From an uncultured bacterium (lineage in GTDB: Bacteria; Bacillota; Clostridia; Lachnospirales; Lachnospiraceae), in the NCBI GenBank assembly GCA_947567075.1, contig CANOLZ010000001.1, positions 25,410 to 89,409 of the forward strand: a DNA stretch of 64,000 nucleotides, written 5' to 3'. Shown piece after piece: positions 33,193 to 52,965 of this stretch (position 1 is its first letter; each line of letters starts with the position of its first letter). The notes below the pieces were generated by a model. It saw nothing but the letters and a program-made list of their open reading frames with translations, was not told the DNA's origin and made no database searches. A program made the translations under genes and the position numbers.

Positions 33193-33221
33193 AACAGGTC
33201 TATGAGAAATGGGGGATTAAA

Positions 33222-33488: not shown

Positions 33489-33494
33489 AAACTT

Positions 33495-34847: not shown

Positions 34848-34862
34848 GAAAGGGAGAGGCAG

Positions 34863-35411
34863 ATGGGAAAGGCATTGGGAATGGCAGAGTATGTTACTGT
34901 TTCAACAGGAATACAGGCAGCAGATATCATTTTAAAGACAGCAAACGTAGAAATCATAGAAGCCCAGACTGTATGTCCGGGAAAATATATTGTACTTTTT
35001 TCTGGGGAGTTAAGTGCAGTCAAGGCCTCTATGGAAGCAGCGAAAGATAGATGCAGTATGCATTTCGTTGATGGCTTTGTTTTAGGAAACCCCCATGCAT
35101 CTATTTTTCCAGCTATTTATGGGTCAACGCCCATAGAAGATGTAAAAGCTCTTGGAGTGCTGGAAACCTTTAGTGCAGCCACTATAATTGTTGCTGCTGA
35201 TGAGGCTGCAAAAACGTCCCAGGTAGAATTGGTGGAGTTAAGAATAGCAAGGGGAATGTGTGGAAAATCCTATCTCATGCTCACAGGGGAAGTGGCGGCA
35301 GTCAAAGCAGCGATAGAGAAGGCAAAAAAAGCAGCTGGTGAGAGGGGGATGCTTTTGGACAGCAGTATTATTGCAAATCCAGATCGCCAGTTATGGGACA
35401 GCATTTTGTAA
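34863..35411 (+). CDS. pduT: Tandem-domain BMC-T shell protein (PduT-like)
   Basis: Two BMC domains in 182 aa. VCPGKYIVLFSG carries the Cys that ligates the pore 4Fe-4S cluster in PduT. Confidence 0.85.
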   Translation: MGKALGMAEYVTVSTGIQAADIILKTANVEIIEAQTVCPGKYIVLFSGELSAVKASMEAAKDRCSMHFVDGFVLGNPHASIFPAIYGSTPIEDVKALGVLETFSAATIIVAADEAAKTSQVELVELRIARGMCGKSYLMLTGEVAAVKAAIEKAKKAAGERGMLLDSSIIANPDRQLWDSIL

Positions 35412-35425
35412 GAAAGGAGAAGGGC

Positions 35426-36892
35426 ATGGAAAAGAGAGTATTAGCATTTGACTTTGGAGCTTCTGGCGGAAGGGCAATGGCTGGTATTTACAACGGAGAG
35501 AAAATAATACTAGAAGAACTCCATCGGTTTTCCAATGAGCCAGTCACAGTTCGAGGAGTTATGTATTGGGACGTTCTAAGATTATTTTATGAAATGAAGC
35601 AAGGCATTTTAAAAGGGAAGCAAAAAGGGAGATTTCAAAGCATTGGCATTGACACATGGGGAGTGGATTTTGGACTATTAGATAAAGATGGAACCTTATT
35701 GGAAAACCCAGTGCATTACAGAGACAATCGCACAAAGGGCATGTTGGAAAAGAGTTTTGAGTACATAGACAAAGAGAAGTTTTATGAAATTACAGGAAAT
35801 CAATTTATGGAAATAAACACTGCCTTTCAACTCCTCTCCTTATCTCAAAATAGGCCAGAGTTTTTAGAAAGAGGGAAAACTTTGCTGCTCATGCCAGACT
35901 TATTTACATATATGTTAACAGGAGTGAAAAGTGCAGAATATTCTATTGCCTCCACGACCCAGCTCCTTGATGCTAGGAAAAGATCCTGGTCTTACTATGT
36001 TATAGAAAAGTTAGGTCTTCCAAAACATATTTTTCCTACGATTGTACAAAGTGGTACAAAGATTGGACCAATAAGTAAAGAAATATGCCAGGAGCTCATT
36101 ATAGATTCTGTAGATGTAATTTCTGTAGCTTCTCATGATACACAGAGCGCTCTTTTGGCAGTGACGGCAAAGGAAAAAGATTTTCTATTTATTAGCTGTG
36201 GCACATGGTCTTTGATTGGCACAGAATTAGAGGAACCAATTATTAATGAAAAGTCTCAAAAGTACAATATTACAAATGAGGGAGGATGTGATAAAAAGGC
36301 TGTTTTTCTAAAAAATATGATTGGACTTTGGCTCATACAAGAAAGCAGGAGACAGTGGATAAGAGAAGGAAAGGAATACGGATTTGGAGACTTGGAAAAA
36401 CTGGCAAAAGAGGCAAGAGGCTTCCTTTCCTTTGTGGATCCTGATGCGCCAGAGTTTGTTCCCCAGGGAGATATACCAGGAAAGATCCGAGAATTTTGCA
36501 AAAAAACAAATCAGCCTGTTCCTGAAACCATAGGTGAAATCGTAAGGTGCATTCATGAAAGCCTGGCATTGAAATATAGAATTGCTTTAGAGGAAATAGA
36601 GGAATGTACAGGGAAAAAATATGAGACAATTTATATGGTAGGAGGGGGAACCCAGAGTAAACTTCTCTGTCAGTGCACAGCCAATGCATGTAACAGAACC
36701 GTTGCGGCAGGTCCAGTGGAGGCTACAGTACTTGGAAATCTTGTGCTTCAGCTTGTGGCATCTGGGGACATTGGAGGTACAAAAGAGGCTAGGGAGTTGA
36801 TTGCCCAATCCCAAAAAATAAATATATATGAGCCAAATAGAGGAGGGGAGTGGGAGGAAGCTTACGGAAGATTTAAAAGTCTTTTTATGTAA
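35426..36892 (+). CDS. FGGY-family sugar kinase (rhamnulokinase/L-fuculokinase type)
   Basis: VLAFDFGASGGRAMAG...LHRFSNEPV...YWDVLRLF is the RhaB-like N-terminus, plus GIDTWGVDFGLLD and VGGGTQSKLL. Confidence 0.85.
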   Translation: MEKRVLAFDFGASGGRAMAGIYNGEKIILEELHRFSNEPVTVRGVMYWDVLRLFYEMKQGILKGKQKGRFQSIGIDTWGVDFGLLDKDGTLLENPVHYRDNRTKGMLEKSFEYIDKEKFYEITGNQFMEINTAFQLLSLSQNRPEFLERGKTLLLMPDLFTYMLTGVKSAEYSIASTTQLLDARKRSWSYYVIEKLGLPKHIFPTIVQSGTKIGPISKEICQELIIDSVDVISVASHDTQSALLAVTAKEKDFLFISCGTWSLIGTELEEPIINEKSQKYNITNEGGCDKKAVFLKNMIGLWLIQESRRQWIREGKEYGFGDLEKLAKEARGFLSFVDPDAPEFVPQGDIPGKIREFCKKTNQPVPETIGEIVRCIHESLALKYRIALEEIEECTGKKYETIYMVGGGTQSKLLCQCTANACNRTVAAGPVEATVLGNLVLQLVASGDIGGTKEARELIAQSQKINIYEPNRGGEWEEAYGRFKSLFM

Positions 36893-38776: not shown

Positions 38777-40777
38777 ATGAAAAGTTTCTCCATAAATTTG
38801 CGAGGACGGGTAAAAAATTTTAATCTTCCTAAAAATCAACCTCTCTTTCCCCTCTTTGAAGCTATTGCCAATTCTATACACGCTATTGATGAGAGAAAAA
38901 AGGCTAAAGAACAATTTGATAGTTACATTACAATCAATCTTATACGTGACAATCAACTAACCCTATTTGGAATAGGTGAACTTTCTCCAATTTGTTCATT
39001 TGAGATTACGGATAATGGTGTTGGATTCAATGAACGAAATTTTACATCCTTTATGGAATCTGATTCAACATATAAAGCTTCTATTGGAGGAAAGGGAGTT
39101 GGCAGATTTTCGTGGTTAGTTGCTTTTGAAAAAGCTGAAATTAGGAGTATTTTTTTTGATGATGTTAGATGGGTTAAACGGGAATTTGAGTTTTCAGTAG
39201 AGCAATCGGAAATAAAGGAAGGACTTGAAGAGTATGAAACCCAGAAAGATAATCAAACTCTTGTTCGACTTGTAAACTGCCAAAATCCTTATCAAAAAGC
39301 CATTCCAAAGCGAGGATTAACCATTGCTACACGAATTATGCAACATTGCTTAGTATACTTTATTTCTGATGAATGTCCACAAATGAACTTAATAGACAAT
39401 GGTGAGAAATATAACCTCAATCAAATGTTTAGGGAAAAAATTCAAACAGAAGAAAATAGCAAAACCTTTCTTATTGGCAATGAAATATTTGAATTACTTC
39501 ATGTAAAATCAGAGGAAACATCTATTAATGGAAATAAATTATATCTTTGTGCACATAATCGTCTGGTTGACACAAAAGAATTGGATAAGTACATTACAAA
39601 TTTGGATAGAGAAATTTATGAAAAAAGCGGCTTTTGGTATATTGGTGTTTTACGTAGTAAGTATTTAGATGATAATGTTGATATGAATCGTCTTTCATTT
39701 AATATTCCTGATAGTGGCTCATCAGAAGGTATGATAAAAATGATTACAATGGAGCAGATTATGAAGTCTGTCATTGTAGAAATAAATGAGTTTTTAAAGG
39801 ATTATCTTCAGCCAATTGCAGAAAATAAGTTGAAGAGAATTACAGAATATGTAACCTATCAGGCTCCCCAATTTCGGCATTTACTAAAATATATGCCAGA
39901 AGCCTTGGCTAAAATGAAACCGAACTTGAGTGAAGACAAAATGGATGATGAATTACATCGTATAAAAAGAGAGTTTGACCGTTATACATCAAAGGAGAAT
40001 ACAAAACTAATAAATGATCTGAATAAAGGTATTATAAATTCAGAGGAATATATCAAAAGATTTGGACAACAAATAGAAAAAATCAATAGTGCAAATGGAG
40101 CCACCCTAGCCGAATATGTGGCACATCGAAAAGTTATTCTTGATTTGATGGACTTTGGAATTCGTCAAAATAATAATGGACATTTCCAAAAAGAAAGTTT
40201 TTTGCATAACTTAATATACCCTATGAGGACGTCAGATGTAGACATTCCTTATCATAATCATAATTTATGGCTTATTGATGAGAAATTAGCTTATTGCAGC
40301 TACATTTCTTCTGATATACCATTCAATAATCATCCAAAGGAAGATAGAACAGATATTATGATTCTTGACAGCCCTGTTGCGGTGTCCGATGAAGAAAATC
40401 ATGGCAGAGAATATGAGAATATTATATTATTCGAATTAAAACGTCCTATGAGAAACGATTATAATCACAGTACAAACCCTGTAAATCAGTTATATGAATA
40501 TGTGGCATCTTTAAAAACAAATAAAATTAAAGATAAAGATGGAAGGATTATCCGAGTTGGAGATAACACAAAATTTTATTTGTATGCAGTTTGTGACTTA
40601 ACGAGTACCTTAGAGCATATTTTAGATTTTCATGACTTTTCCCAAACACCTGATAAAATGGGCTATTACAAATACAATGATAAAATGAATGCATATATTG
40701 AAATAGTATCTTATGATAAAATTATCAATGATGCAAAGAAACGTAACAAAATATTATTTGATAAATTAGGCATCTGA
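38777..40777 (+). CDS. GHKL (MORC/Hsp90/MutL-like) ATPase fused to a C-terminal PD-(D/E)xK-like nuclease domain
   Basis: Bergerat motifs FEAIANSIHAI (E-x3-N), ITDNGVGFN and IGGKGVGRFS, then a helical middle region. The C-terminus has ESFLHNLIYP...TDIMILD...ILFELKRP...NQLYEY (D...ExK). AAGGAGG lies 9 nt upstream of the ATG. Confidence 0.8.
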   Translation: MKSFSINLRGRVKNFNLPKNQPLFPLFEAIANSIHAIDERKKAKEQFDSYITINLIRDNQLTLFGIGELSPICSFEITDNGVGFNERNFTSFMESDSTYKASIGGKGVGRFSWLVAFEKAEIRSIFFDDVRWVKREFEFSVEQSEIKEGLEEYETQKDNQTLVRLVNCQNPYQKAIPKRGLTIATRIMQHCLVYFISDECPQMNLIDNGEKYNLNQMFREKIQTEENSKTFLIGNEIFELLHVKSEETSINGNKLYLCAHNRLVDTKELDKYITNLDREIYEKSGFWYIGVLRSKYLDDNVDMNRLSFNIPDSGSSEGMIKMITMEQIMKSVIVEINEFLKDYLQPIAENKLKRITEYVTYQAPQFRHLLKYMPEALAKMKPNLSEDKMDDELHRIKREFDRYTSKENTKLINDLNKGIINSEEYIKRFGQQIEKINSANGATLAEYVAHRKVILDLMDFGIRQNNNGHFQKESFLHNLIYPMRTSDVDIPYHNHNLWLIDEKLAYCSYISSDIPFNNHPKEDRTDIMILDSPVAVSDEENHGREYENIILFELKRPMRNDYNHSTNPVNQLYEYVASLKTNKIKDKDGRIIRVGDNTKFYLYAVCDLTSTLEHILDFHDFSQTPDKMGYYKYNDKMNAYIEIVSYDKIINDAKKRNKILFDKLGI

Positions 40778-41063
40778 AAAGGGGATAGGACATATCTTTC
40801 ATGACTTATAAGGAGTCCTTTCTGATTATTTTATATATTTTCTGTTTTAAGCTGCTTTATAGTATGATCAAACGCAATATCTCCTATTTTTTATAGATTT
40901 CCATATTCCTATAAATTTATGTAAAGTGAGGAAAAATTCAATTCTTGGGATGAGACAGGGCAAGGAATAGCAATATAATAAACAGGAAGGTAATGAAATT
41001 TTTTATTGCCTATGCTATAATAACATACAAATACAAAATTTAGGAAATTAGGAGATGGATACA

Positions 41064-42071
41064 ATGAGACAATGGAAAAAAATCATAGGAAGAACTGTGA
41101 AAACCTTGCCCTTTCTTCTAGTAGTGCCTTTGATAGGGTGTAAAAATTCAGATGCCCAGACTGTAGGGGAGAGTGGAGAAGAAAATATGGTGGCAGAAGT
41201 GAATTCTTTACCCCAGGGGGAGGCTCCAGAAAAAGAAGAGGCCATAAATATTGTGGATCAAGTGGAATCGGTTAAGACTACAAAGGAAGATGACCAATTA
41301 ACAGGAGAGAAGGAATCAGAAAGCGAAGAAGTAGCAAAACCGCCAGAAGGGTGGGAATTGGTCCTTGCCTCTGAAGACTGGGGACTTTCTTTTAAGGAGC
41401 AGGGAGCCCAGCCTGTAGGTAATGCAACAGCTTCTGATCTTGCATGGTATGACGCCTATTATGTGGGAGATGATAGTGAAAAAGTCATTTATCTTACCTT
41501 TGACTGTGGCTATGAAAATGGAAACACAGAACCTATTTTGGATGCTTTAAAAAAACATAATGTAAAAGCTATGTTTTTTGTTGTAGGACATTTTTTAGAG
41601 TCAGCTCCAGATATGGCAAAGCGTATGGTAGAAGAGGGGCATATGGTAGGCAACCATACGTATCACCACTTGGATATGCCCACAATTTCAGATAAAGCAA
41701 CCTTCCAAAAGGAGATGGATGATGTGGCAAATTTGTTCAATGAGATTACAGGCACAAAGCTTTCACCCTATTACCGTCCTCCCCAAGGAAAATGTAATAC
41801 CCAGAACTTAAAGATGGCAAAAGAATTGGGATATTCTACTATTTTCTGGAGCCTTGCTTATGTAGACTGGAACACGGATAATCAGCCAAGTCATGAGGAG
41901 GCATTTAGCAAACTCACAGAACGAATACATCCAGGGGCTATTGTGTTGCTTCACAACACATCAAAAACCAATGGTGAGATTTTGGACGAGCTTTTGACAA
42001 AATGGGAAGGAATGGGTTATCGTTTTGAACTCTTACCAGAACTTAAGGCCAGTGGGAAGAAAACTAATTAA
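41064..42071 (+). CDS. NodB-family polysaccharide deacetylase lipoprotein (PdaA-like)
   Basis: Lipobox PLIGC and an acidic linker. NodB motifs are YLTFDCGYENGNT, GNHTYHH, YYRPPQG and VLLHN. It resembles the delta-lactam-forming PdaA subgroup. Confidence 0.85.
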   Translation: MRQWKKIIGRTVKTLPFLLVVPLIGCKNSDAQTVGESGEENMVAEVNSLPQGEAPEKEEAINIVDQVESVKTTKEDDQLTGEKESESEEVAKPPEGWELVLASEDWGLSFKEQGAQPVGNATASDLAWYDAYYVGDDSEKVIYLTFDCGYENGNTEPILDALKKHNVKAMFFVVGHFLESAPDMAKRMVEEGHMVGNHTYHHLDMPTISDKATFQKEMDDVANLFNEITGTKLSPYYRPPQGKCNTQNLKMAKELGYSTIFWSLAYVDWNTDNQPSHEEAFSKLTERIHPGAIVLLHNTSKTNGEILDELLTKWEGMGYRFELLPELKASGKKTN

Positions 42072-42140
42072 GCTTATTTTCACTGATAAGGAGTCTAAGA
42101 GGACTTTCCATTAGAAAGAAATGGGTGTGGTAAATACGAA

Positions 42141-42181
42141 AGGAGCATTTCATCTTAAACTTAGAGAGATGCTCCTTTTTA
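42141..42181 (+). terminator. Rho-independent terminator
   Basis: AGGAGCAT ... ATGCTCCT stem (20-nt loop) followed by TTTTTA. Confidence 0.5.
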
Positions 42182-42310
42182 TATTTTAAGATATCCAAGT
42201 ATTTTCTTAGAAATGGTATGTGGACTATAAACAACGGAATTTCCCATAGGGCAAATACATAGAGCCAGGAACCTAGATTTCAGATACCTGACTCATTATT
42301 GCATTTCTGT

Positions 42311-42905
42311 CTATATTGTTTGATTTGCTTTTAATTTTTTTACTTCCTCAATGGAAAGGTCAACAAATTCAGCAATCTTTTCAAGGGTTATTGTTCCATC
42401 TGCCAGCATTTCATAATACATATCGGACGCATTAGTACATGAAAAATCATGCATGAGCTTTCCTAGTGGCGTATCACCACGATAAGCGCCATTTACATAC
42501 AATTTGTGGGAGCCGTCTCCAAACTTCTCATTTGTCCCTAAAAAACAGCGTTCAATCTGGTATAATGGCAATCCTTTCTTCATGACATCATTTTCGGTAA
42601 TAAAGATTACCCATGTTTCGGGAAGAGAATCAAAATCCTTGCCCTTTTTTCCCAGCGCCTTTGTCAGCTCGTTGAATTCTTACGGAATGATTCAACAGAT
42701 TTTCCACGAATACTTGAGTGTGAACGTCCAGTACTTTTAAATCTGTCTTTTCTAATATAATTTGTAGCACTAGTTCTATACTTGCTGTATCTTCTTCGAA
42801 ACACTTTGTAAAAAAATCATCATCAAGTAGGCGAAAATATTGTAATCTCTGTAAATCTTCTTGATGTTTCTGTTCTATGTGTTCTGTTACTGTCAATGTT
42901 CCCAC
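42311..42905 (-). pseudogene. Frameshifted Rpn-family / PD-(D/E)xK 'putative transposase' gene
   Basis: Two adjacent ORFs (42630-42905 and 42311-42583) together give the typical architecture (LLDDDFFTKCFE...VFVENL...; ...LPLYQIERCFLGT...YVNGAYRGDTPLGKLMHDF). They are separated by a frame break. Confidence 0.65.
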
Positions 42906-43059
42906 CTACTTTACTTTTTATTTTTGTTTCTAAATACTACCATAGATCTCCTTATTTTACAAGTAAGAAGCCAGGATATGATAGTACACATTCCTATAAA
43001 AAATGATAAAATATAGAAAAATGACAAGAAAATAGAAAGGGGAGTTGGTGATTTCAATG

Positions 43060-43518
43060 ACTATAAGGAAGTATGAATCTTTTGATTGCAAGGAGACAGC
43101 AGAATTATTCTATCATACAGTACACACAGTAAATGCTAAGGATTATACTAAAGAGCAGCTGAATGTTTGGGCAACAGGTAGTATAGATTTGAAAGAGTGG
43201 AACAACACATTGTCAGAACACTTTAGTATTGTTGCTATAGAAAAGAATCAGATTGTTGGGTTTGGAGATGTGGATAAAAAGGGATATTTAGATAGATTAT
43301 ATGTGCATAAAGATTATCAAAACCAAGGAATTGCTACAGCTATTTGCAAGGAACTGGAACAGGTTATAAATAGAAACAAAATAATCACACAAGCCTCAAT
43401 TACAGCAAAATCATTTTTTGAACAAAGGGGTTATCAAGTAGTGAGAAGGCAGCAGGTTATCAGAAATGGAATTTTTCTGACAAATTACCTGATGGAAAAA
43501 GAACTTCATTCCTTATAA
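43060..43518 (+). CDS. GNAT-family N-acetyltransferase
   Basis: Acetyl-CoA motif RLYVHKDYQNQGIATAI, ~150 aa. Confidence 0.85.
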   Translation, partial: TIRKYESFDCKETAELFYHTVHTVNAKDYTKEQLNVWATGSIDLKEWNNTLSEHFSIVAIEKNQIVGFGDVDKKGYLDRLYVHKDYQNQGIATAICKELEQVINRNKIITQASITAKSFFEQRGYQVVRRQQVIRNGIFLTNYLMEKELHSL

Positions 43519-43612
43519 AAGAGCAAGAGCACAGAAAAAAAGAGAAAAGAATTACAAAGGCTTTGGCTACATATAATAGCAGTAATAATAGAACAATTAC
43601 TGGAGATTAGAA

Positions 43613-44182
43613 ATGAAAGAGAAGAAAAAATGGTTGAACATCATGGAAGAGAAGGTAAAACAATCTGGAATTTTGTGGGCAGGAGTCCTTATGCTCATTT
43701 TAAGTGTCCTTCTTTATACGCCAAAAGTCATTAGTGTAAGCAATAGTGTCGATGGAAGGGAACTTCCTATTTATTGTGTAGACACAAAGGAAAATAAAGT
43801 GGCTTTAAGTTTCGATGCAGCTTGGGGAAATGAAGATACAGGGAAGATTTTGGAAATATTAAGAAAACATAATGTGAAAGTCACTTTTTTTATGACAGGA
43901 GGATGGGTATCCAAATATCCAGAAGATGTGAAGGCTATATTGGCAGATGGGCATGACTTGGGAAATCATAGTGAAAATCATAAAAATATGTCCAAAATTT
44001 CCGATGAGGAATGTAAGGAAGAATTAATGTCCGTACATAATAAAGTAAAAGAATTAACAGGATATGAAATGTTTTTATTCCGTCCTCCTTATGGAGATTA
44101 TGATAACCATGTTATTACAAATGCGAAAAAATGTGGTTATTATTCTATCCAGTGGGATGTGGATACATGGGATACAACATGA
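43613..44182 (+). CDS. 5' segment of a split PdaB-like NodB deacetylase gene
   Basis: TM anchor, then ELPIYCVDTKENKVALSFDAAWGNEDT, GNHSENH and FRPPYGDYD. It is colinear with the intact paralogue at 46805-47836 up to ...YYSIQWDVD, then diverges and stops after 5 codons. Confidence 0.85.
   Translation: MKEKKKWLNIMEEKVKQSGILWAGVLMLILSVLLYTPKVISVSNSVDGRELPIYCVDTKENKVALSFDAAWGNEDTGKILEILRKHNVKVTFFMTGGWVSKYPEDVKAILADGHDLGNHSENHKNMSKISDEECKEELMSVHNKVKELTGYEMFLFRPPYGDYDNHVITNAKKCGYYSIQWDVDTWDTT
44157..44164 (+). repeat. Left copy of the 8-bp core (attL-like)
   Basis: ATGTGGAT at the point where homology to the intact paralogue ends. Confidence 0.75.
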
Positions 44183-44341
44183 AAAAAGGAGGAAAGCCAG
44201 CATTCCTGCCGGCTGTATGAAAAAGAAGTTATAGAAAATACGATTTTAATTATAAGGATAGAATATGGAGATTTTATAGCGAAAGTGTAACGAATTTCAG
44301 ACCAAATTGTAAAAACTATATTATATTTAAGGGAGTATTTC

Positions 44342-44497
44342 ATGAAAATAAAACATACTTTTTTACACCATTGGGAAAAGGATGAAGATAGAGAGGTTAG
44401 CAGAAAGAGAAAATATGAAGATTTAGTTTGGGCAATCAAAAAGAAAAGGGAGGAGTGTGCGTGGGGGCAGAAGCAATCTACGCAAGACAATCAGTAG
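44342..44497 (+). CDS. Small charged ORF (51 aa) overlapping the recombinase start; possible excision cofactor
   Basis: The ATG lies ~6 nt after AAGGGAG. Sequence is MKIKHTFLHHWEKDEDREVSRKRKYEDLVWAIKKKREE.... It overlaps the recombinase start by 37 nt. There is no homology evidence. Confidence 0.3.
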   Translation: MKIKHTFLHHWEKDEDREVSRKRKYEDLVWAIKKKREECAWGQKQSTQDNQ

Positions 44498-45888
44498 ATA
44501 AAAAAGAGTCGTTGTCTATAGAAGGCCAGATAGAACTGTGCAAGAAAGAGTGCAAAGACACAAAAGACGTATTTATCTATCAAGATAGGGGATACAGTGG
44601 TAAAAATACAAAAAGGCCGGGATTTAAAGAGATGATAGAAGATGTAAAACAAGGAAAAATTGAAAAAATCATTGTTTACCGATTGGATCGCCTTAGCCGT
44701 TCTATTGTAGACTTTGGACAAATTTGGAGTTTGCTAGAAAAAAATGGTGTAGAATTTGTGTCAATAAATGAAAAATTTGATACATCCACTCCTATGGGCA
44801 GGGCTATGATCTACATTATTATGGTATTTGCACAGTTGGAGAGGGAGACAATTGGAGAGAGAGTACGAGATAATTATTATGCAAGAATTCAAAAAGGCCA
44901 CTGGCCAGGAGGTATTGCTCCTTATGGATTTTGCAATATTCAAAAAATAGATGAAACAGGGAGGCAGGTTCCTTCCCTAAAACAAGAAAAAGAAATAGAA
45001 ATAGTAAAATGGATTTTTCAGGAATATGAGAAGGAGAATGCTTCTCTTGGAAAAATAGCAAGAAGCTTGACAGAAGCAAAGGTTGCCTGTAAGAAGAGAT
45101 GGGGTTGGGATAACGTTGCCTTGTCAAGAATACTCCACTCTCCCGTTTATGTAAAGGCAGATGAGAAAATTTATAATTATTTTAAAGAAAAGGGAAACTA
45201 TGTATTTTCCAATACTATGGAGGAGTTTGATGGAAAGAGGGCGGCCCATATTATAGGAAAGGGAAAGGAAGGGCAAGTATTGTCACTGACAAATTTTGAG
45301 GGGACCATTTCATCTAATCAGTGGCTGAATTGTCAAAGGAAATTGGAGAGAAACAAACAAATAGGTAATTCTGGGAAAGGAAAATATACTTTTTTATCAG
45401 GTCTTATAAAATGTGGGAAATGTGGGTATAGTTTAAACGTCCGATGCAGCAGAAAAAAATTATATTTAGGGTGTAGTGGGCATTCCAACTTACATATTTG
45501 CGATGTAAAGAAAATTTCCTTTTCCATTGAAGAGCTGGAAGACTTGGTAAGAACAGAAATGGAATTTATATTTGAACAATGCCAAAAAAGCTATTTTATA
45601 AAAAGGGATGGGGAGAGTACCTTGGAAAGCTTAGAGAAAAAAATAGCAGCCCTGGTACATAAGCTGGCAGAGACATCTGGGGTCAGCAGTTACTACATTA
45701 AAAAAGAAATAGAGAAAATAGATGAGGAGAAAAAGGAATTGCTGAATAAAAAGGAAAAAATACAGAGGGGAGCCCCTTTTTTTTCTTTCCATCAATTGAG
45801 TTTTGAGGAGAAAAAGCTAGCAGTTTATACATTTATTGATAAAATATTCGTGACGGATTTTGAAATAGAAATTGTGTGGAAGGGGTAA
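44461..45888 (+). CDS. Large serine recombinase (SpoIVCA/CisA-like)
   Basis: The resolvase domain has AIYARQSVDKKESLSIEGQ (Ser nucleophile) and YRLDRLSRS. It also has a recombinase domain, a Cys-rich zinc-ribbon-like region CGKCGYSLNVRCSRKKLYLGCSGHSNLHIC and a C-terminal coiled coil. GTG lies 7 nt after GGGAGG. Confidence 0.9.
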   Translation: MGAEAIYARQSVDKKESLSIEGQIELCKKECKDTKDVFIYQDRGYSGKNTKRPGFKEMIEDVKQGKIEKIIVYRLDRLSRSIVDFGQIWSLLEKNGVEFVSINEKFDTSTPMGRAMIYIIMVFAQLERETIGERVRDNYYARIQKGHWPGGIAPYGFCNIQKIDETGRQVPSLKQEKEIEIVKWIFQEYEKENASLGKIARSLTEAKVACKKRWGWDNVALSRILHSPVYVKADEKIYNYFKEKGNYVFSNTMEEFDGKRAAHIIGKGKEGQVLSLTNFEGTISSNQWLNCQRKLERNKQIGNSGKGKYTFLSGLIKCGKCGYSLNVRCSRKKLYLGCSGHSNLHICDVKKISFSIEELEDLVRTEMEFIFEQCQKSYFIKRDGESTLESLEKKIAALVHKLAETSGVSSYYIKKEIEKIDEEKKELLNKKEKIQRGAPFFSFHQLSFEEKKLAVYTFIDKIFVTDFEIEIVWKG

Positions 45889-45937
45889 AGTGTTATATAA
45901 TAGAAAATATACTCGTAATGGATGGAGGAAATCATTT

Positions 45938-46396
45938 ATGGATCAAACACTAAAGGAGAAAATCTTAAAGCTGTTTCAAGATAATGAAGATATTTGTGTA
46001 GATTATTCATTGTTTTTAGACAGCAAAGCAGACACAGAGTTTGTAGGGTGTACTGGAAAAGAGAAGAAAAAGTACTGGGATATTTTTCAGCATATGGAAC
46101 AGAAGGCTCCTGGGACAAAGATTGTTATTCATATTTATGACGAGGAAGATGGAAGATGGTTTGCAGACGATGCTTATTTGGAGACCAGTTTGTCAGAAGA
46201 AGACTTAAAAGGAATTTTTGAGAAGTTTAATGAGCAATATGAAGAATATTTATCCCCTAGCCAGCTCCACTGTGTAAAAGAAGAGGAGAGAGATTATTAT
46301 ATGAAGGGATATTATGTGAGAGACGGCGGGGAGAGTCAGAGACTATCAGAATATTTAAAGGGAGAATACTTTGTTTTTTATTGCTGGTGGGATTGA
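45938..46396 (+). CDS. Hypothetical acidic 152-aa protein carried by the element
   Basis: The ATG lies 9 nt after GGAGG. No recognisable motifs. It ends in ...YFVFYCWWD. Confidence 0.55.
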   Translation: MDQTLKEKILKLFQDNEDICVDYSLFLDSKADTEFVGCTGKEKKKYWDIFQHMEQKAPGTKIVIHIYDEEDGRWFADDAYLETSLSEEDLKGIFEKFNEQYEEYLSPSQLHCVKEEERDYYMKGYYVRDGGESQRLSEYLKGEYFVFYCWWD

Positions 46397-46421
46397 CCAT
46401 AGGTGTTTTAAGATGTATACA

Positions 46422-46429
46422 ATGTGGAT
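46422..46429 (+). repeat. Right copy of the 8-bp core (attR-like)
   Basis: ATGTGGAT immediately precedes resumption of the deacetylase reading frame. Confidence 0.75.
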
Positions 46430-46669
46430 TCCTTAGACTGGAAAGACTATGGGGTGGATTCCATCGTTAATACGGTATGTAACCATAAACATTTAGGAAA
46501 GGGATCGATTATCCTTTGTCACAATGGAGCCAAATATACAGCTCAGGCACTGGAATCGGTCATTACAGGGCTTCAGGAAAAAGGGTACCAGATTGTGCCT
46601 ATTTCCCAGCTCATTTATAAAGATAATTATCATATGGATCATGAAGGACGTCAGGTGAAAAATATTTGA
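46424..46669 (+). CDS. 3' segment of the split PdaB-like NodB deacetylase gene
   Basis: (V)DSLDWKDYGVDSIVNTVCNHKHLGKGSIILCHNGAKYTAQALESVITGLQEKGYQIVPISQLI aligns residue-for-residue with the C-terminus of 46805-47836. Confidence 0.85.
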   Translation: MDSLDWKDYGVDSIVNTVCNHKHLGKGSIILCHNGAKYTAQALESVITGLQEKGYQIVPISQLIYKDNYHMDHEGRQVKNI

Positions 46670-46684
46670 GACTGAAAAATTAGA

Positions 46685-46713
46685 TTGTCTGGAAAAAGAG
46701 ATAATAGTATAAT
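46685..46713 (+). promoter_or_regulatory. Sigma-A-like promoter of the intact deacetylase paralogue
   Basis: TTGTCT (46685-46690), a 17-nt spacer, then TATAAT (46708-46713). Confidence 0.45.
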
Positions 46714-46804
46714 GGGATAAGAATCTTGTCCAGAGAGGATAGAAAGAGGACTAATCAATATAAATCTGGAGAATAAAAAGAATACAAAGAAGGGAAGAGA
46801 AGAG

Positions 46805-47836
46805 ATGGACGAAAGAAGAAGGAGAAGAAGATTACAAAAAGCAAGGAAAAAGAGAAAAAAGAAAATAATTTTATTTTCTACAGTGGCTTGTCTGCTTCTA
46901 GGAACGGCAGCCCTTGTGGTGAGCTGCCGTACAACAGAAGCCTCTTTGGATAATGACAGGCCTGAGACTGTGCCAGACGTTGCCAGGGTAACCTCAGACG
47001 CCGTGAAAAAAGAAACAGAAGTTCAAGATGGGAACAGTGGGCTGCCTGTTAGCCCTGAACCAGTTTCTTCTCCCTTAGCCCCTCCTGTAGAAGAAGGAGA
47101 TAATCAAGAGACAGAGAAGCAGAATGAAAGTATAGTTAGCTCTTCTGTTTTTCCTGAGGCAGTGGGAGGAACTTATACAGTAAATGGAAGGGAACTTCCA
47201 ATTTATTGTGTGGAGACAGAGGAGAAAAAAGTAGCTTTAAGTTTTGACGCAGCCTGGGGAAATGAGGATACCGTTCAGATTTTAGACATATTAAGAAAGT
47301 ACAATATAAAAACGACTTTCTTTATGACAGGGGAGTGGGTATCAAAGTTTCCTGAGGATGTGAAGGCGCTTTTGGCAGATGGACATGATTTAGGAAACCA
47401 TGGTGAAAATCATAAAAACATGTCCCAGCTTTCTGATGCAGAGAATAAGGAAGAAATCATGGCTGTACATAACAGAGTAAAGGAATTGACAGGGTATGAG
47501 ATGCGTTTATTCCGTCCGCCTTATGGAGATTATGACAGTGAAGTAGTCACAAGTGCAAAGGAATGCGGTTATTATACAATTCAGTGGGATGTGGATTCCC
47601 TGGATTGGAAAAATTTTGGAGTAGATTCTATTATTGATACAGTATGCAATCACAAAAGTTTAGGAAACGGCTCCATCATTCTCTGCCATAATGGAGCTCA
47701 ATATACCGCACTGGCTTTAGAGTCTTTAATTACAGGGCTTCAGGAGAAGGGATATGAAATTGTTCCTATCTCTGAACTTATTATGAAAGAGAATTTTCAT
47801 TTAAATGCAATAGGACGTCAAATAAAAGACTCTTAA
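46805..47836 (+). CDS. NodB-family polysaccharide deacetylase (PdaB-like), intact paralogue
   Basis: Basic N-terminus, a TM segment and a P/S/E-rich linker, then the NodB core ELPIYCVETEEKKVALSFDAAWGNEDT, GNHGENH, FRPPYGDYD and ILCHNG. Confidence 0.88.
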   Translation: MDERRRRRRLQKARKKRKKKIILFSTVACLLLGTAALVVSCRTTEASLDNDRPETVPDVARVTSDAVKKETEVQDGNSGLPVSPEPVSSPLAPPVEEGDNQETEKQNESIVSSSVFPEAVGGTYTVNGRELPIYCVETEEKKVALSFDAAWGNEDTVQILDILRKYNIKTTFFMTGEWVSKFPEDVKALLADGHDLGNHGENHKNMSQLSDAENKEEIMAVHNRVKELTGYEMRLFRPPYGDYDSEVVTSAKECGYYTIQWDVDSLDWKNFGVDSIIDTVCNHKSLGNGSIILCHNGAQYTALALESLITGLQEKGYEIVPISELIMKENFHLNAIGRQIKDS

Positions 47837-47886
47837 TTAGGGGATATGAGTTAATAATCATTAAGTAAAGGCAGGGAAAGGAAAAG

Positions 47887-49899
47887 ATGGCAGGAGAAAA
47901 GAGAAAAAGCCATGGAATGGGGAGAAAAAAAGAAAATAAAAAAATCAGGGGGAAAATTACAAATAATGTAATTTTGCTCTTAGTCTTAGCCTGTGTTTTA
48001 TTAGGGGCATCCACATGTATTATGAATTATCGGACAGCAATGGACACACTGACAGACAGTATGACAGAGATAGTATCCGTAGCTTCCACAAGAGTTACAA
48101 AAGAATTGGAGCAGTATATAGATGCTGCCGCCGATCTGGGAACTATGGTAAGGATAGCCGATGAAAATGTATCCTTAGAGGAAAAGGAAGCTTTGATTTT
48201 AGATATGAAGGAGAGCCATGGTTATGTGAGCGGGGATATTATAGACAGAAATGGAAATATGCTTCTTTCAGGAATGAGTGCATCAGACGAAATGTATTTT
48301 CAGGAAGCATTAAAGGGAAACCATTACATTAGTAATCCCCAAATAAGCCAGAGTTCCGGAGAACTCGTTGTGATTACGTCAGCTCCTATTTGGAAAGATG
48401 GAGTGATAAATTCAGAAATCATAGGAGTTGTGGCTGTGTCTGTTCCAGTGGGGGTGCTAAGTAATATTACAGATTCCATTCGAATTGGGGAAAGGGGAAG
48501 CTCTTTTATTTTAGATTCCAATGGGGTAACTATTGCCCATGATGACCAGACTTTAGTAGGGGTGGAAAACATACAGGAACAGGCAAAGTCCGATAAAGGT
48601 TTAGAAAATATTGCAAAGATGCATAAAAGAATGACTATGGGAGAGACAGGGGTTGTTTCTTATAGATATGGGGGAATTGGAAAAATTGCAGCCTTTACTC
48701 CCATTGATAAGACGCCAGGATGGAGCGTGGCCACAACAGCAAGAAAATTTGAGTTTATGACAAATTTTTATGTCTCCCTCATGATTACTATAGCATCGGT
48801 TATACTGTTTATTATTATTGGAATTCGTCTTGCTGCAAAACTTGGAAAGTCTATTGCGGATCCTATTGAAATGTGTGTGGACAGACTCCAGGCATTGGCA
48901 GAGGGAGACTTAACAACAAAGGTAGAGATCTTTCAAACAGGAGATGAGACAGAGACATTGTCCAGAGCTCTAGATACAACCATTCGACAGTTAAAAGAAG
49001 CTATCGGAGATGTGGATTTTCATTTAGCGGCTATTTCAGAAGGAGATTTGAGAAAGGAAGTGACAAAACACTACCAAGGTGATTTAGGTGCTTTAAAATC
49101 TTCCATGACGAAAATTACAAGTTCCTTAAGTGATGTATTAGGGGAAATAGAAGATTCATCTGGGACGGTTATGCAAGGATCCCAAAATTTATCCAATGCC
49201 TCCCAGTCTTTAGCAGATGGAGCCACAGATCAGGCAAGTTCTGTTCAAGAATTGACAGCAACGATTAATTCTATTGAAGAGAAACTTCAGGGAACAGAAA
49301 GAAACACAGAGATAGCCCAAGAGAAGGTTCAGTATGTAATGGAGGAAATTACAAGAAGTAAGGAGCAGATGGACGAATTAAGCAAGGCTATGGACTCCAT
49401 TGAAAAGACATCATCGGACATTGAGAATATTATCCATACGATTACCAATATATCAGAACAGACAAATCTTTTAGCTCTCAACGCTTCTATTGAGGCAGCT
49501 AGGGCAGGAGAGGCAGGAAAAGGATTTGCCGTTGTTGCAAATGAAGTAGGTTCCCTAGCAGCAAGCAGTGCAGATGCTGCCAAAAACACAGCAGAACTCA
49601 TTCAAAGTTCCCTTATGGCAGTAAAAAATGGGACAAAATTAACAGGCGGTACAGTAGAAGCGTTGCAAAATGTTGTATCTGGAGCTGTAGAGGTTGAGGA
49701 GATTATAAGACATATTACAATGGCAAGCAGGGATCAGACAAAGGAGATTGCCCAAGTTTCCAAGACAATTGAGCAAATTTCGAGCATTGTTGAAAGCAAT
49801 GCAGCAGCGGCACAAGAATGTGCAGCTTCTAGTGAACAGTTATCAGCAGAAGCAATAAACTTAAATAATCAAGTTGGCAAGTTCCAGGTAAAGAACTGA
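47887..49899 (+). CDS. Methyl-accepting chemotaxis protein (Cache-type sensor, HAMP)
   Basis: Two TM segments flank an extracytoplasmic domain. It has a HAMP domain and the conserved signalling hairpin [31 protein letters not shown]. Confidence 0.9.
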
Positions 49900-49915
49900 T
49901 AAAGGAGAGTGCTTA

Positions 49916-50899
49916 ATGGGAAAGAAAGTATTAGTGACAGGGGCGGATGGATTTATCGGAAGCCATTTAACAGAGACTTTATTGGAGGCTGGATATGATG
50001 TAAAGGCATTTGTTTATTATAATTCGTTTAACCGCTGGGGATGGCTTGACTCTTTTCCAATTGAAAAGCTGCAGGAAATTGAAATCGTTACAGGAGATAT
50101 CAGAGACCCTAATGGGGTCTCTGAAGCTATGGCTAGAATAGATATGGTGTTCCATTTGGCAGCCTTAGTAGCAATTCCTTTCAGTTATTATTCACCAGAT
50201 TCTTATGTGGATACAAATATAAAGGGAACGTTAAATGTACTTCAGGCAGGGAGAAAATTTGAAACAGAGAGAATAATGATCACTTCCACGTCAGAAGTTT
50301 ATGGAAGTGCCCAGTATACTCCCATTGATGAAAACCATCCCTTTCAGGGACAATCCCCTTATTCTGCTACGAAAATAGGGGCTGACAGGCTGGCAGAAAG
50401 TTTTTACCGAAGCTTTGGCATGCCTATATCCATTGTTCGTCCTTTTAACACATATGGACCAAGGCAGTCAGCCAGGGCGGTAATTCCTACAATTATTTCC
50501 CAGCTTCTCTCTGGAAAAAAGGAAATTAAGCTTGGATCCTTATCTCCCACAAGAGATTTTAATTATGTAAAGGACACAGCAGAAGGATTTTTAGCCATTG
50601 CCCAGTCGGAAAATACAATTGGAGAAGAAATTAATATTGCGACCCAGCAGGAAATTTCCATTGGGGAACTGGCTGGAGAAATAATTTCTCAAATTAATCC
50701 AGAAGCAAAAGTTATATGTGAAAAAAAACGTCTGCGTCCAGAGAAAAGCGAGGTGAACAGACTCCTGGGAGCAAATGGAAAAATAAAGGAGTTGACAGGA
50801 TGGAGTCCCAAATATTCTTTACAAAGAGGGATAAGAGAAACGATCCAATGGATGGAGCAAAATATGGAAGCCTATAAAGCAGACATATATAATGTTTAA
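49916..50899 (+). CDS. NAD-dependent sugar-nucleotide 4,6-dehydratase (LegB-like SDR)
   Basis: VTGADGFIGSH Rossmann motif, catalytic SPYSATKIGAD (YxxxK), and ...YKADIYNV at the C-terminus. From memory it closely resembles the LegB subgroup. Context includes NeuB/NeuA-family genes. Confidence 0.75.
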   Translation: MGKKVLVTGADGFIGSHLTETLLEAGYDVKAFVYYNSFNRWGWLDSFPIEKLQEIEIVTGDIRDPNGVSEAMARIDMVFHLAALVAIPFSYYSPDSYVDTNIKGTLNVLQAGRKFETERIMITSTSEVYGSAQYTPIDENHPFQGQSPYSATKIGADRLAESFYRSFGMPISIVRPFNTYGPRQSARAVIPTIISQLLSGKKEIKLGSLSPTRDFNYVKDTAEGFLAIAQSENTIGEEINIATQQEISIGELAGEIISQINPEAKVICEKKRLRPEKSEVNRLLGANGKIKELTGWSPKYSLQRGIRETIQWMEQNMEAYKADIYNV

Positions 50900-50956
50900 C
50901 AGCAGAGAGATTAGAAACTTTTTGCTCTTAATGGGGAAGGACAAAATCAGAAAGGC

Positions 50957-52033
50957 ATGAGTATCATGATGAATAAAAAAACGGATGCAGATATATCAAA
51001 GTTTATTATTTCTGGTACAGTGACAGTAATGGAGGCATTAAAAAGGATTGACTTAAATGGTCATGGCGTTGTTTTTATTTATGAAGACGATAAAATGACA
51101 GGAGTTGTCTCAGACGGAGACATTCGAAGGCATATATTAAAAAATGGAAATTTGAATGTGGAAGTGAGAGAAATTGCAAATGGGGCTCCTCAGTTTATAC
51201 GCCATGGCAGTGATGTGAATGTGCAGGACTATATTAGACAAAACCGAATAACAGCATTGCCCGTTTTAGATGATAAGGGAAAAATCGTAAGAATTGAGTT
51301 TGATAATAGAGGAAAAATATATCGTCATTTGGATATTCATGTTCCTGTTGTCATAATGGCAGGAGGGAAGGGGACAAGACTTGCCCCTTTTACAAATATA
51401 TTGCCAAAACCATTAATTCCAATTGGAGATAAAACGATAACAGAACATATTATAGACCGTTTTCAAAGATTTGGCTGTAATAAGTTTCATATGATTGTAA
51501 ATTACAGGAAAAATTTTATTAAAACTTACTTTACTGAGCAGGAAAATTCCCCAGAATTATTTTTTATAGAAGAATCTAAATTTCAGGGAACTGGAGGAGG
51601 GATAAAACTGCTGGAAGGGAAAATAGAGGAAACGTTCTTTTTGACAAATTGTGATATTTTAGTAGATGAAGACTATTCTTCCATTTTAGATTATCATAAG
51701 GAAAAGAAAAATATCATTACCTTGGTGTGTGCGACAAAAAATATAGAAATTCCATATGGCACAGTCCAAGTTTCCCATGAGGGCAGGGTGACAGGCTTTC
51801 AAGAAAAGCCCAGCTTTCATTTTCTGACAAACACAGGATTTTATGTAATAGAACCAGAGTTTTTTCGTTTGATTCATAAAGATGAAAGGATAGACATGAC
51901 AGACTTAATCCAAAAGTGCATTGATCAAGGAAGGGAAGTAGGTGTATATCCTATTACGGAAAACAGCTGGATGGATATGGGACAGCTTAAGGAGCTGGAA
52001 AATATGAGAATACGCCTTGGCTATATGGATTAA
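50957..52033 (+). CDS. CBS-domain sugar-1-phosphate nucleotidyltransferase (PtmE-like)
   Basis: N-terminal CBS pair and an NTP-transferase motif IMAGGKGTRLAPFT. The start may instead be the ATG at 50966 or 50969. Confidence 0.8.
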   Translation: MSIMMNKKTDADISKFIISGTVTVMEALKRIDLNGHGVVFIYEDDKMTGVVSDGDIRRHILKNGNLNVEVREIANGAPQFIRHGSDVNVQDYIRQNRITALPVLDDKGKIVRIEFDNRGKIYRHLDIHVPVVIMAGGKGTRLAPFTNILPKPLIPIGDKTITEHIIDRFQRFGCNKFHMIVNYRKNFIKTYFTEQENSPELFFIEESKFQGTGGGIKLLEGKIEETFFLTNCDILVDEDYSSILDYHKEKKNIITLVCATKNIEIPYGTVQVSHEGRVTGFQEKPSFHFLTNTGFYVIEPEFFRLIHKDERIDMTDLIQKCIDQGREVGVYPITENSWMDMGQLKELENMRIRLGYMD

Positions 52034-52056
52034 ATGCTTGAAGAAAGGACATGGTG

Positions 52057-52965
52057 ATGAAGTTGAAAATAGGCTATTTTGCAGATGGACCTTGGGCCCA
52101 TGAGGCATTGAACAGGCTAAAAGGAGATAGGGAGATTGAAATATTGTTTATTTGTGTCAGATACGATAAGAAGGATGAAGTTCTTGTAAAATATGCACAG
52201 GAATATGGAATCGACCTCCTTATGGATCCAAATATAAATTCAGAGGAATTTTTGAAAAAACTAATGGAATACAAGGCAGATTTATTTGTGTCCATGTCTT
52301 TTAATCAAATTTTTAAGGAAAAAATAATAAAAATGCCTCCAAGGGGGATTATAAACTGTCATGCAGGTAAACTGCCTTTTTATAGGGGGAGGAATGTACT
52401 CAATTGGGTTCTTATCAATGATGAGAAAGAATTTGGCATTACAGTTCACTATGTGGATACGGGCATTGACACAGGGGACATTATTTTACAGGAAACCTAC
52501 CCTATTACTGATGAGGACAATTATAAAACATTGTTAGAGAGAGCCTATCTAGGATGTGGAGATGTTTTATACAGGGCAATACGGATGTTGATCGATGGCA
52601 AGGAAGAGGTGATTGTCCAGGATAGTATTGATAAGGTGGGGTTTTATTGTGGAATGAGGGTAGAAGGGGACGAGATGATAGATTGGAGCTTAACAAGCAG
52701 AGAAGTTTTTAACTTTGTTAGGGCTATTTGTCTGCCAGGACCTGAGGCTAGAACTTTTTTAAAAGGAAAGGAAATGAAAATTAATAAGGTGAAGATGGTA
52801 GAAGGAGCAAGACCTTATCAATGTATATGCGGTATGGTTGTGGGAAAAACAGACAGGGGATTTTATGTAAAAACAGGGGATACTATAGTAGAGGTCACAG
52901 AATATTCTTATGAGGGCAGGGTTCCCATTGGAAGCAGACTATGTCAGAACGGAGGGGTGAAATGA
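52057..52965 (+). CDS. Formyltransferase (Fmt/ArnA-N-like sugar N-formyltransferase candidate)
   Basis: Formyl_trans_N motifs INCHAGKLPFYRGRN and HYVDTGIDTGDII, plus a C-terminal Fmt-like domain. Confidence 0.8.
   Translation: MKLKIGYFADGPWAHEALNRLKGDREIEILFICVRYDKKDEVLVKYAQEYGIDLLMDPNINSEEFLKKLMEYKADLFVSMSFNQIFKEKIIKMPPRGIINCHAGKLPFYRGRNVLNWVLINDEKEFGITVHYVDTGIDTGDIILQETYPITDEDNYKTLLERAYLGCGDVLYRAIRMLIDGKEEVIVQDSIDKVGFYCGMRVEGDEMIDWSLTSREVFNFVRAICLPGPEARTFLKGKEMKINKVKMVEGARPYQCICGMVVGKTDRGFYVKTGDTIVEVTEYSYEGRVPIGSRLCQNGGVK

Follow-up and report, generated by a model that had tools for sequence, protein, structure and literature searches.

When a gene is interrupted by a mobile element, it may be a casualty of the insertion or it may be a gene that its host puts together again when needed. 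This is the question raised by a locus on contig CANOLZ010000001.1 of an uncultured bacterium of the Lachnospiraceae. In the 64,000-nucleotide stretch of this contig that was analysed, referred to here as the window, a NodB-type polysaccharide deacetylase gene is split by a 2,265-bp element that carries a large serine recombinase. Comparison with related genomes makes it probable that this is a gene-intervening element of the skin type, which is excised in sporulation to rebuild the deacetylase gene.

A single NodB (Polysacc_deac_1) deacetylase gene accounts for two open reading frames (ORFs), 43613-44182 and 46424-46669. Both align colinearly with the intact paralogue at 46805-47836, the N-terminal part (codons 1-184) with 76% identity over 148 aa and the C-terminal part with 74% identity over 78 aa. 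Since the first alignment stops at residue 264 of the paralogue and the second begins at residue 265, homology breaks at ...QWDVD|SLDWK..., codon 184, from where the N-terminal part continues for five codons into the element (TWDTT) up to a stop at 44180-44182. Neither half of the gene contains a stop codon or frameshift, and when they are rejoined at the 8-bp repeat described below, an open frame of 263 codons results. A preliminary description of the locus had proposed a single deacetylase gene, cleanly split at this point into two intact and reconstitutable halves by an insert encoding a large serine recombinase. The colinear alignments, the open frame and the domain matches of the recombinase all agree with this, and a careful alignment of the halves revealed no inactivating mutations.

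The split deacetylase matches PF01522 with E = 1e-35, and all five motifs of the NodB/CE4 domain are present: FDAAWG (MT1, in which the second aspartate is replaced), HSENH (MT2), RPPYG (MT3), D|SLDW (MT4) and LCH (MT5). The five-motif architecture and the motif definitions of CE4 enzymes are well established. Judged by this architecture the 5' half, which lacks motif 5 and, with the split point lying inside it, motif 4, does not make a complete enzyme, and the gene is thus expected to be inactive while the element is in place.

The boundaries of the element are marked by an 8-bp direct repeat, ATGTGGAT, at 44157-44164 and 46422-46429 (Table 1). The crossover dinucleotide is likely the GA at 44162-44163, which falls inside the codon for Asp-184, in NodB motif 4. 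The attachment site of the excised circle (attP), reconstructed from the two junctions, is an imperfect inverted repeat centred on this GA, with 16 of 25 positions complementary, and the bacterial site (attB) has its best symmetry at the same centre (13 of 25). Short sites with an imperfect dyad around a non-palindromic GA correspond to the normal site anatomy of serine integrases. In G+C content the element equals its flanks.

As the preliminary description had suggested, we searched relatives for the empty site and found it in two metagenome contigs of a sister lineage, L001 and L002, which carry an uninterrupted 263-aa gene and are about 88% identical to the window in DNA on both flanks. 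The match takes in the GNAT gene upstream and, downstream, the beginning of the paralogue, such that synteny is kept, and the intact 263-aa protein P0001 is 94% identical to the reconstituted one; P0002 is a second intact protein. Positions 1-844 of L001 correspond to 43317-44164 of the window and positions 837-1460 to 46422-47038. These blocks have exactly the core in common, which makes the element a discrete insertion with a defined crossover. More than 150 public sequencing runs contain the element (SRR22600563, for example), and its ORFs and the split halves occur on 119-164 independent public contigs, which shows that the split form is not an assembly artefact, and no intact allele of the same species (>95% identity) was present among about 15 billion proteins. 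The element looks fixed in its species, next to a sister lineage at about 88% DNA identity that is without it. Records of this recombinase, at 90% identity or above, come from 'bacterium 1XD42-8' and Lachnospiraceae metagenome-assembled genomes (MAGs).

Table 1. Coordinates of the split gene, the intervening element and associated sites in the window.
Feature	Position	Strand	Details
Sigma-E-like (mother-cell-type) promoter candidate of the split gene	43549..43577	+	GAATTAC, 14 nt, CATATAAT
5' part of PdaB-like NodB deacetylase gene, codons 1-184	43613..44164	+	Polysacc_deac_1 E = 1e-35; motifs FDAAWG, HSENH, RPPYG
attL	44135..44190	+	host arm, core ATGTGGAT (44157-44164), element arm ACATGGGATACAACATGAAA
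Intervening element, 2,265 bp	44165..46429 (equivalently 44157-46421)	+	missing from L001 and L002, where flank alignments overlap by the core
Small ORF, 51 aa, candidate recombination directionality factor	44342..44497	+	overlaps recombinase start by 36 nt
Large serine recombinase, 475 aa, GTG start	44461..45888	+	Resolvase, Recombinase and Zn_ribbon_recom domains
Cargo ORF, 152 aa, acidic, ends ...YFVFYCWWD	45938..46396	+	near-orphan
attR	46395..46455	+	element arm TTTTAAGATGTATACA, core ATGTGGAT (46422-46429), host arm
3' part of deacetylase gene, codons 185-263 and stop	46430..46669	+	NodB motifs 4 (SLDW) and 5 (LCH)
Intact tandem paralogue, 343 aa, homologous site unoccupied (context, outside the element)	46805..47836	+	sigma-70-like promoter TTGTCT-17-TATAAT at 46685-46713
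Reconstructed junction 40-mers			attB, TATTCTATCCAGTGGGATGTGGATTCCTTAGACTGGAAAGAC; attP (circle), TTTAAGATGTATACAATGTGGATACATGGGATACAACATGAAAA

The recombinase, for which databases give alternative starts two or eleven codons upstream (44455 or 44428), matches PF00239 (residues 5-148, E = 3e-40), PF07508 (E = 4e-13) and PF13408 (E = 4e-9), as well as PHROG 95, 'integrase', over residues 5-467 (E = 2e-93). Its catalytic motif reads AIYARQS, of which R9, Q10 and S11 are invariant across 15 relatives (alignment A1). A resolvase domain with its serine, the recombinase and zinc ribbon domains and the att dyads together identify it as a large serine recombinase. Its best match in NCBIfam is XisF (NF041201), with a score of 150.8 bits that stays below the cut-off of 375. 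The closest full-length relative of solved structure is SprA, a weak match (E = 2e-14), and neither phages nor plasmids contain a close relative (best identities 38% and 43%, respectively).

Two small ORFs accompany the recombinase. The 51-aa ORF upstream of it has no match in Pfam or PHROG, and the 152-aa cargo ORF none in Pfam, NCBIfam or PHROG. The latter is conserved on 164 contigs of the species, with only 11 matches among 1.84 billion representative proteins. We considered it as a recombination directionality factor (RDF) and rejected it, as it is a near-orphan and has no homologue in any of 88 related loci. The 51-aa ORF is the better candidate, because its position is conserved in relatives.

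To place the element in a wider context, one genome per species was scanned, which yielded 80 loci with recombinases 36-56% identical to the window enzyme; sets of 86 and 88 loci were used in scanning for the small ORF and in checking for the 152-aa ORF, respectively. In 50 of the 80 species genomes, deacetylase fragments break at the same codon as in the window. Their ends fall at query residues 184-192 and their starts at residue 184 or slightly before it, as alignments may extend by a few residues into element-derived sequence. Had the relatives been found at unrelated sites, as the preliminary description considered, an ordinary transposition would have been indicated; instead, in at least 50 species they share one target gene and one codon within it. 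Thirty related loci have no deacetylase fragments; these were looked over only briefly, and two of them adjoin asparagine synthase fragments. The nearest recombinases beyond the species are about 57% identical, and one, P0136, belongs to an element of 6.2 kb with different cargo (indolepyruvate oxidoreductase-like genes, an AMP-binding gene and a Phd/ParE pair), whose target, a deacetylase with 66% identity, is interrupted at the codon used in the window.

Across the aligned junctions, the GA in the Asp-184 codon is invariant. The element arms are conserved and mutually inverted, and left and right arms co-vary in more than 40 genomes (in L021, for example, attL reads GAT-acttacgcaacagttggaaa and attR ctttccaactgctgcgtacggg-GAC). 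The host site is itself a dyad, TCCAGT...GA...ACTGGA, which arises from the codons for IQW and DW. At loci holding both halves of the gene, the elements measure 2.5-16 kb, and their G+C content equals that of the flanks. Cargo in the small relatives is non-phage and includes Amidase_3 (L068 and L070), a PALP (threonine dehydratase-like) enzyme together with a protein that is RidA-like by its sequence (L042 and L048), a pyridine nucleotide-disulphide oxidoreductase in L065 and an AAA-ATPase-like protein with a PD-(D/E)XK domain in L012. No phage or conjugation genes were seen in the small relatives inspected.

The smallest relatives, of 2.5-2.6 kb, carry a single cargo gene, the N-acetylmuramoyl-L-alanine amidase just mentioned (L068 8999-9709; L070 7869-8732). 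Amidase_3 is the enzyme family of CwlD, the partner of PdaA in cortex delta-lactam synthesis, and its presence in an element that splits a deacetylase gene may be a coincidence or a functional link. L005 (900-1150) shares recombinase, cargo and right junction with L004, but has a different left flank, with ABC/CbiQ genes. As the homology between the two begins about 30-45 bp inside the element, L005 has a larger or rearranged version of it.

Could a site used this widely be no more than a convenient place to integrate? The element would then be an ordinary site-specific integrative island, to which the sequence of NodB motif 4 offers a portable attB, much as tRNA genes do, which knocks out a redundant copy and whose excision, if any, would be for transfer or loss and unconnected with sporulation. 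This is the main rival to the skin-type reading. No stretch of the gene is more conserved than the target, which also has a natural dyad symmetry, the cargo varies among relatives and includes a toxin-antitoxin pair and metabolic genes, and the identities of recombinases and host genes are uncorrelated overall. In the window, an intact paralogue adjoins the split gene. The small elements inspected, however, contain no transfer genes, and the one in the window appears fixed in its species.

Selection on the split halves speaks more directly to this issue. Across the family (about 50 loci), they contain no stop codons. Two pairs of loci, L042/L048 and L068/L070, keep collinearity not only in both flanks but also in the element and its cargo, from which it follows that the element was already in the common ancestor of each pair. 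Synonymous divergence (dS) is high in both the recombinase (1.70 and 1.46) and the host gene (1.98 and 1.91), yet the ratio of non-synonymous to synonymous divergence (dN/dS) in the split halves is 0.04 and 0.10. The pair L013/L040 shows the same pattern at lower divergence (dS 0.38 vs 0.35, dN/dS of the halves 0.05). Constraint on both halves implies that the gene must be expressed as a whole, and we regard purifying selection on the halves of vertically inherited elements as the strongest indirect evidence for reconstitution. An island that merely disables a redundant copy would leave it unexplained.

For the window itself, we polarised the 17 differences between the split copy and P0001 with ten outgroup proteins and the window paralogue. 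The split copy has four derived amino-acid changes and its intact sister nine. The halves have thus been kept intact while interrupted, as is seen in skin-like elements. At codon 208 (46490-46492), the split copy has lysine where P0001 and all ten outgroups have asparagine (HLGNGS to HLGKGS); this is its sole derived change at a strongly conserved site.

The N208K change, together with a degenerate promoter box in the window, is what might be expected of a decaying insertion, in which the recombinase is inactive and the gene a young pseudogene before lesions accumulate. We consider this very improbable. The recombinase is full length, with catalytic motif and three domains intact, the att arms are intact and symmetric, and the split copy has changed less than the intact one. 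Moreover, recombinase dN/dS values of 0.04-0.28 across pairs of the family, combined with the invariant RQS, indicate purifying selection and suggest that the recombinases of the family are functional.

If the gene is rebuilt, the promoters should indicate when. In Clostridioides difficile, CATATTAT and CATATAAT are canonical mother-cell -10 boxes; sigma-E and sigma-K promoters have the -10 box in common and differ in the -35 region (ATA vs AC), and three polysaccharide deacetylases belong to the sigma-E regulon (PMC3789822). The split gene has a CATATAAT box at 43570-43577, and the CATATAATA box 43 nt before the ATG is also found in the intact orthologues of L001 and L002. Upstream of non-redundant split N-terminal halves, CATAnnnT occurs in 18 of 26 cases, where 6-7 are expected.

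A small ORF precedes the recombinase, usually abutting or overlapping it, in 53 of the 86 loci covered by a motif scan. The 48 distinct sequences are 33-67 aa long and follow the consensus M-x-[IV]-K-[HN]-T-x-P-x-Y-x4-ER-x7-YR-x5-L. Upstream of this ORF, CATAnnnT is present in 29 of 42 non-redundant relatives against about 3 expected, and the complete pattern, kmATnnn, 13-15 nt, CATAnnnT, in 20 of 42 against 0.2-0.3 expected, with a maximum of 2 in 500 shuffles. These motifs peak 26-30 nt before the ATG and are present in G+C-rich genomes too. With ATA in the -35 and CATA in the -10 region, they match the published sigma-E pattern (PMC3789822). Between about half and two thirds of the relatives thus have a sigma-E-type promoter in front of the recombinase module, far above chance, which an integrative island does not account for either. 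The same holds for a deacetylase gene cut twice by unrelated elements with all three pieces still intact (L009, below). Although the island explanation would accommodate the absence of a CATA box from the window element and the recent transfer seen in some pairs (L028/L034), we consider it unlikely.

The promoters bear on a further alternative, a reversible switch outside development, in which excision and re-integration in vegetative cells ('active lysogeny' or phase variation) would produce heterogeneous expression of the deacetylase. Large serine recombinases can re-integrate when the RDF is absent, and the small ORF of the window is preceded by a sigma-70-like promoter candidate. In C. botulinum, moreover, the yin element has been found excised in every growth phase (PMC10747680). 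In contrast, the promoters of the family are of the mother-cell type, and dividing cells would lose a 2.3-kb circle that has no replication function, yet in public assemblies of the species no allele with an empty site is found. We judge such a switch to be quite improbable.

Returning to excision in sporulation, several observations weigh against it. No sigma-E/K CATA box is located directly upstream of the small ORF in the window, where the region reads CTATATTAT; the ORF is preceded instead by a weak sigma-70-like candidate, TTCAGA-17-TATTAT, and regulation of this element may differ from that of the rest of the family. The recombinase module of the window is likelier to be transcribed by read-through from the deacetylase promoter, or else from the weak sigma-70-like one. 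Read-through is possible, because the deacetylase promoter and the small ORF are on the same strand and no terminator-like site was found between the stop of the N-terminal half and the small ORF. It cannot be the general mechanism, however, since all four orientations of recombinase and gene occur across the relatives.

Other points on this side concern the identity of the gene and the history of the family. Against the full PdaB equivalog model (TIGR02764, positions 1-191), the reconstituted protein reaches 219.4 bits, below the cut-off of 237.4; PdaB is nevertheless its best-scoring family, above YlxY and PdaA, and the product is to be called PdaB-like rather than a certified PdaB. For its role in sporulation, we have the promoter motifs and analogy to go by, and the 51-aa ORF is likely an RDF by its position and size. 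The intact tandem paralogue, 76% identical, could render the split copy dispensable. In the pair L028/L034, the recombinase is younger than the host gene (dS 0.13 vs 0.76), and recombinase dS values below those of the host gene in some pairs indicate that elements also move between lineages. Finally, with ten neighbouring ORFs scanned, the window contains no canonical sporulation gene other than a PdaA-like one, itself below its cut-off.

The preliminary description had read the layout as that of a developmentally excised, skin-like element. Its reading is sustained by the family at a single codon, the selection on the halves, the sigma-E-type promoters of the family and a small ORF in the position of Skr, the RDF of skin; the upstream region of the small ORF in the window, which has no canonical CATA box, departs from the family pattern. 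The comparative evidence argues strongly for reconstitution, and the motifs make a good case for mother-cell timing in the family.

The observed insertion anatomy, att sites, empty site, conserved target, purifying selection and promoter motifs can be joined into the following mechanism, for which we infer the timing and cell type of excision, the role of the small ORF and the route of transcription in the window. The element is integrated by its own large serine recombinase at the GA of codon Asp-184. It would stay in place in the forespore and in vegetative cells, with the deacetylase gene inactive. The sporulating mother cell would make the recombinase and the small upstream protein, the likely directionality factor, in most relatives from their own sigma-E-type promoter and in the window probably by read-through from the sigma-E-like deacetylase promoter. 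Recombination between attL and attR would then release a 2.27-kb circle and restore the in-frame gene of 263 codons, which would be expressed from the same mother-cell promoter. As the mother cell lyses, the element would be kept in the germ line.

We take ybaN to be the older name of pdaB. In Bacillus subtilis, ybaN is a mother-cell gene bound by SpoIIID, and spoIVCA, which encodes the recombinase of skin, depends on sigma-E and SpoIIID (PMC517825). Skr is a protein of 64 aa, encoded directly upstream of spoIVCA with an overlap of 101 nt and under sigma-E control (PMC6957869). The element described here resembles skin in the large serine recombinase at its edge, the split gene, here a putative mother-cell gene, the small ORF that overlaps the recombinase start (by 36 nt, compared to 101 nt for Skr) and, by the promoter motifs of the family, sigma-E-type control. 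Skin elements exist down to 2.6 kb with two genes, in variable orientation and with no common cargo (bioRxiv 10.1101/2022.02.25.481979); small sizes, variable orientation and cargo that is not common between elements are also found here. The initial view of a near-minimal element, consisting of a recombinase and one or two small ORFs, holds for size and content at 2,265 bp, but minimality as such is not new in light of these two-gene skin elements. Differences to skin are that the target is an enzyme, a NodB deacetylase, and not a regulator, that the cargo is non-phage, and that excision is here predicted by comparison.

The gin element in gerE of B. cereus is likewise not a prophage and combines a serine recombinase with a tiny RDF (GirC/GirX) and a 9-bp core in imperfect inverted repeats. 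GirX has 42 aa and no known motif, and the genes of both proteins are expressed specifically in sporulation. Yet gin is 28.6 kb long, contains three recombinase genes and is confined to few Bacillus strains, whereas the element here has 2.3 kb and a family in at least 50 species of Clostridia. In SPbeta in spsM (SprA/SprB), vfbin in spoVFB and yin in yabG, too, a mother-cell gene is rebuilt by a serine integrase and an RDF. These are prophages or their remnants of tens of kb, in contrast to the element here, which has no phage genes and whose nearest phage recombinase is at most 38% identical.

Outside the Bacillota, the heterocyst elements of cyanobacteria (fdxN/XisF, nifD, hupL) offer a parallel, as their genes are restored only in a terminally differentiated cell and XisF is the best NCBIfam match of our recombinase. 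They belong to another phylum and another developmental programme, and the XisF score (151 bits vs a cut-off of 375) is low. A single cyanobacterial genome can carry several excision elements, to which one may compare the L009 locus, where one gene is cut by two. Described targets of intervening elements in sporulation are sigK, spsM, spoVFB, gerE and yabG; spoVR is a further known one. In the literature library searched, no paper describes a polysaccharide deacetylase gene or pdaB as the target of a serine recombinase or integrase.

The element that accounts for the second cut in L009 has a large serine recombinase unrelated to the first family, which cuts the deacetylase gene at a different conserved motif, SFDAAWG|NEDT, with a core of CTGGGG (L008 922-2881; L009 3747-8818; L011 13976-21307). 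The enzyme has 531 aa in L008 and is 26% identical to the window enzyme; its relatives in L011 and L009 are 65% and 41% identical, respectively. In L009, the deacetylase gene consists of three intact pieces with the two elements between them. L008 and L011 have the same two breaks, with the outer pieces beyond the contig stretch covered.

Two further arrangements depart from the common layout. In L086 (9318-19857), the N-terminal half, small ORF and recombinase are followed by four attR-like sites, each with a C-terminal deacetylase fragment (14495, 16488, 17661, 19612). They lie in a unit of about 3.1 kb which is duplicated and includes a methyltransferase-like gene of 235 aa. This array could represent alternative 3' cassettes, the trail of past integrations or an artefact of MAG assembly. 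In L064 (4769-5215) and L087 (2264-2962), recombinases 37-38% identical to the window enzyme adjoin asparagine synthase fragments that break at Pfam position 224, a C-terminal part (224-354) in the former and an N-terminal part (4-224) in the latter. This suggests a sister subclade of recombinases that targets an asnO-like gene. In B. subtilis, asnO is a mother-cell gene under sigma-E and SpoIIID (PMC517825).

The surroundings of the element in the window include two more deacetylase genes. The tandem paralogue (46805-47836), which has a long low-complexity N-terminal extension, is preceded by a sigma-70-like promoter and the split copy by a CATATAAT box, and the two look like a vegetative and a sporulation copy side by side. 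A third NodB gene at 41055-42071, 1.5 kb upstream of the split gene, is PdaA-like, with 282.8 bits against the delta-lactam de-N-acetylase model (cut-off 298), so that three cortex-type deacetylase genes are clustered at the locus. Between the PdaA-like and the split gene, on the minus strand at 42311-42905, where the local G+C skew is reversed, two adjoining short ORFs of 90 and 91 aa without Pfam match resemble parts of one broken gene. Further upstream (32530-36892) are microcompartment and rhamnulokinase genes, and downstream (49916-52965) a LegB-like 4,6-dehydratase, which at 505.7 bits exceeds its cut-off of 475, along with sugar-nucleotide genes. An Rfam scan of 40000-50000 at E <= 0.1 returned no structured RNAs.

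New in these findings are the target gene, the recombinase clade with its family of small ORFs, and their breadth in gut Clostridia. We lean towards the view that they represent a widespread and previously undescribed class of developmentally excised mini-elements in gut Clostridia (Lachnospiraceae, Oscillospiraceae, Acutalibacteraceae, Anaerotignum and others). As defined here, members of the class would have a recombinase from a serine recombinase clade of their own, a Skr-like small protein, a sigma-E promoter and few non-phage cargo genes, sometimes only one, and would all sit at a single codon of the PdaB-like mother-cell gene; the view also takes in the second, unrelated element in the gene of some genomes and the sister subclade in an asparagine synthase gene. 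Genome annotation should be treated with care at such loci, as split genes are called as two fragments or as pseudogenes. On the practical side, the family provides dozens of natural sets of attB, attP, recombinase and RDF candidate, with recombinases 36-57% identical, for the study of their co-evolution, and excision might serve as a simple, testable marker of gene expression in the mother cell for organisms whose sporulation is difficult to investigate.

The developmental rearrangements known so far affect a handful of targets, almost all of them in Bacillus and pathogenic clostridia, to which a gene for a cell-wall enzyme would now be added. Its target site is occupied in at least 50 species of commensal gut Clostridia, mostly by tiny non-phage elements, some of which have been inherited across species splits. 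If our reading is correct, genome editing in the mother cell would be common among commensal spore formers and vertically inherited, and would allow them to carry vegetative cargo genes which the mother cell discards.

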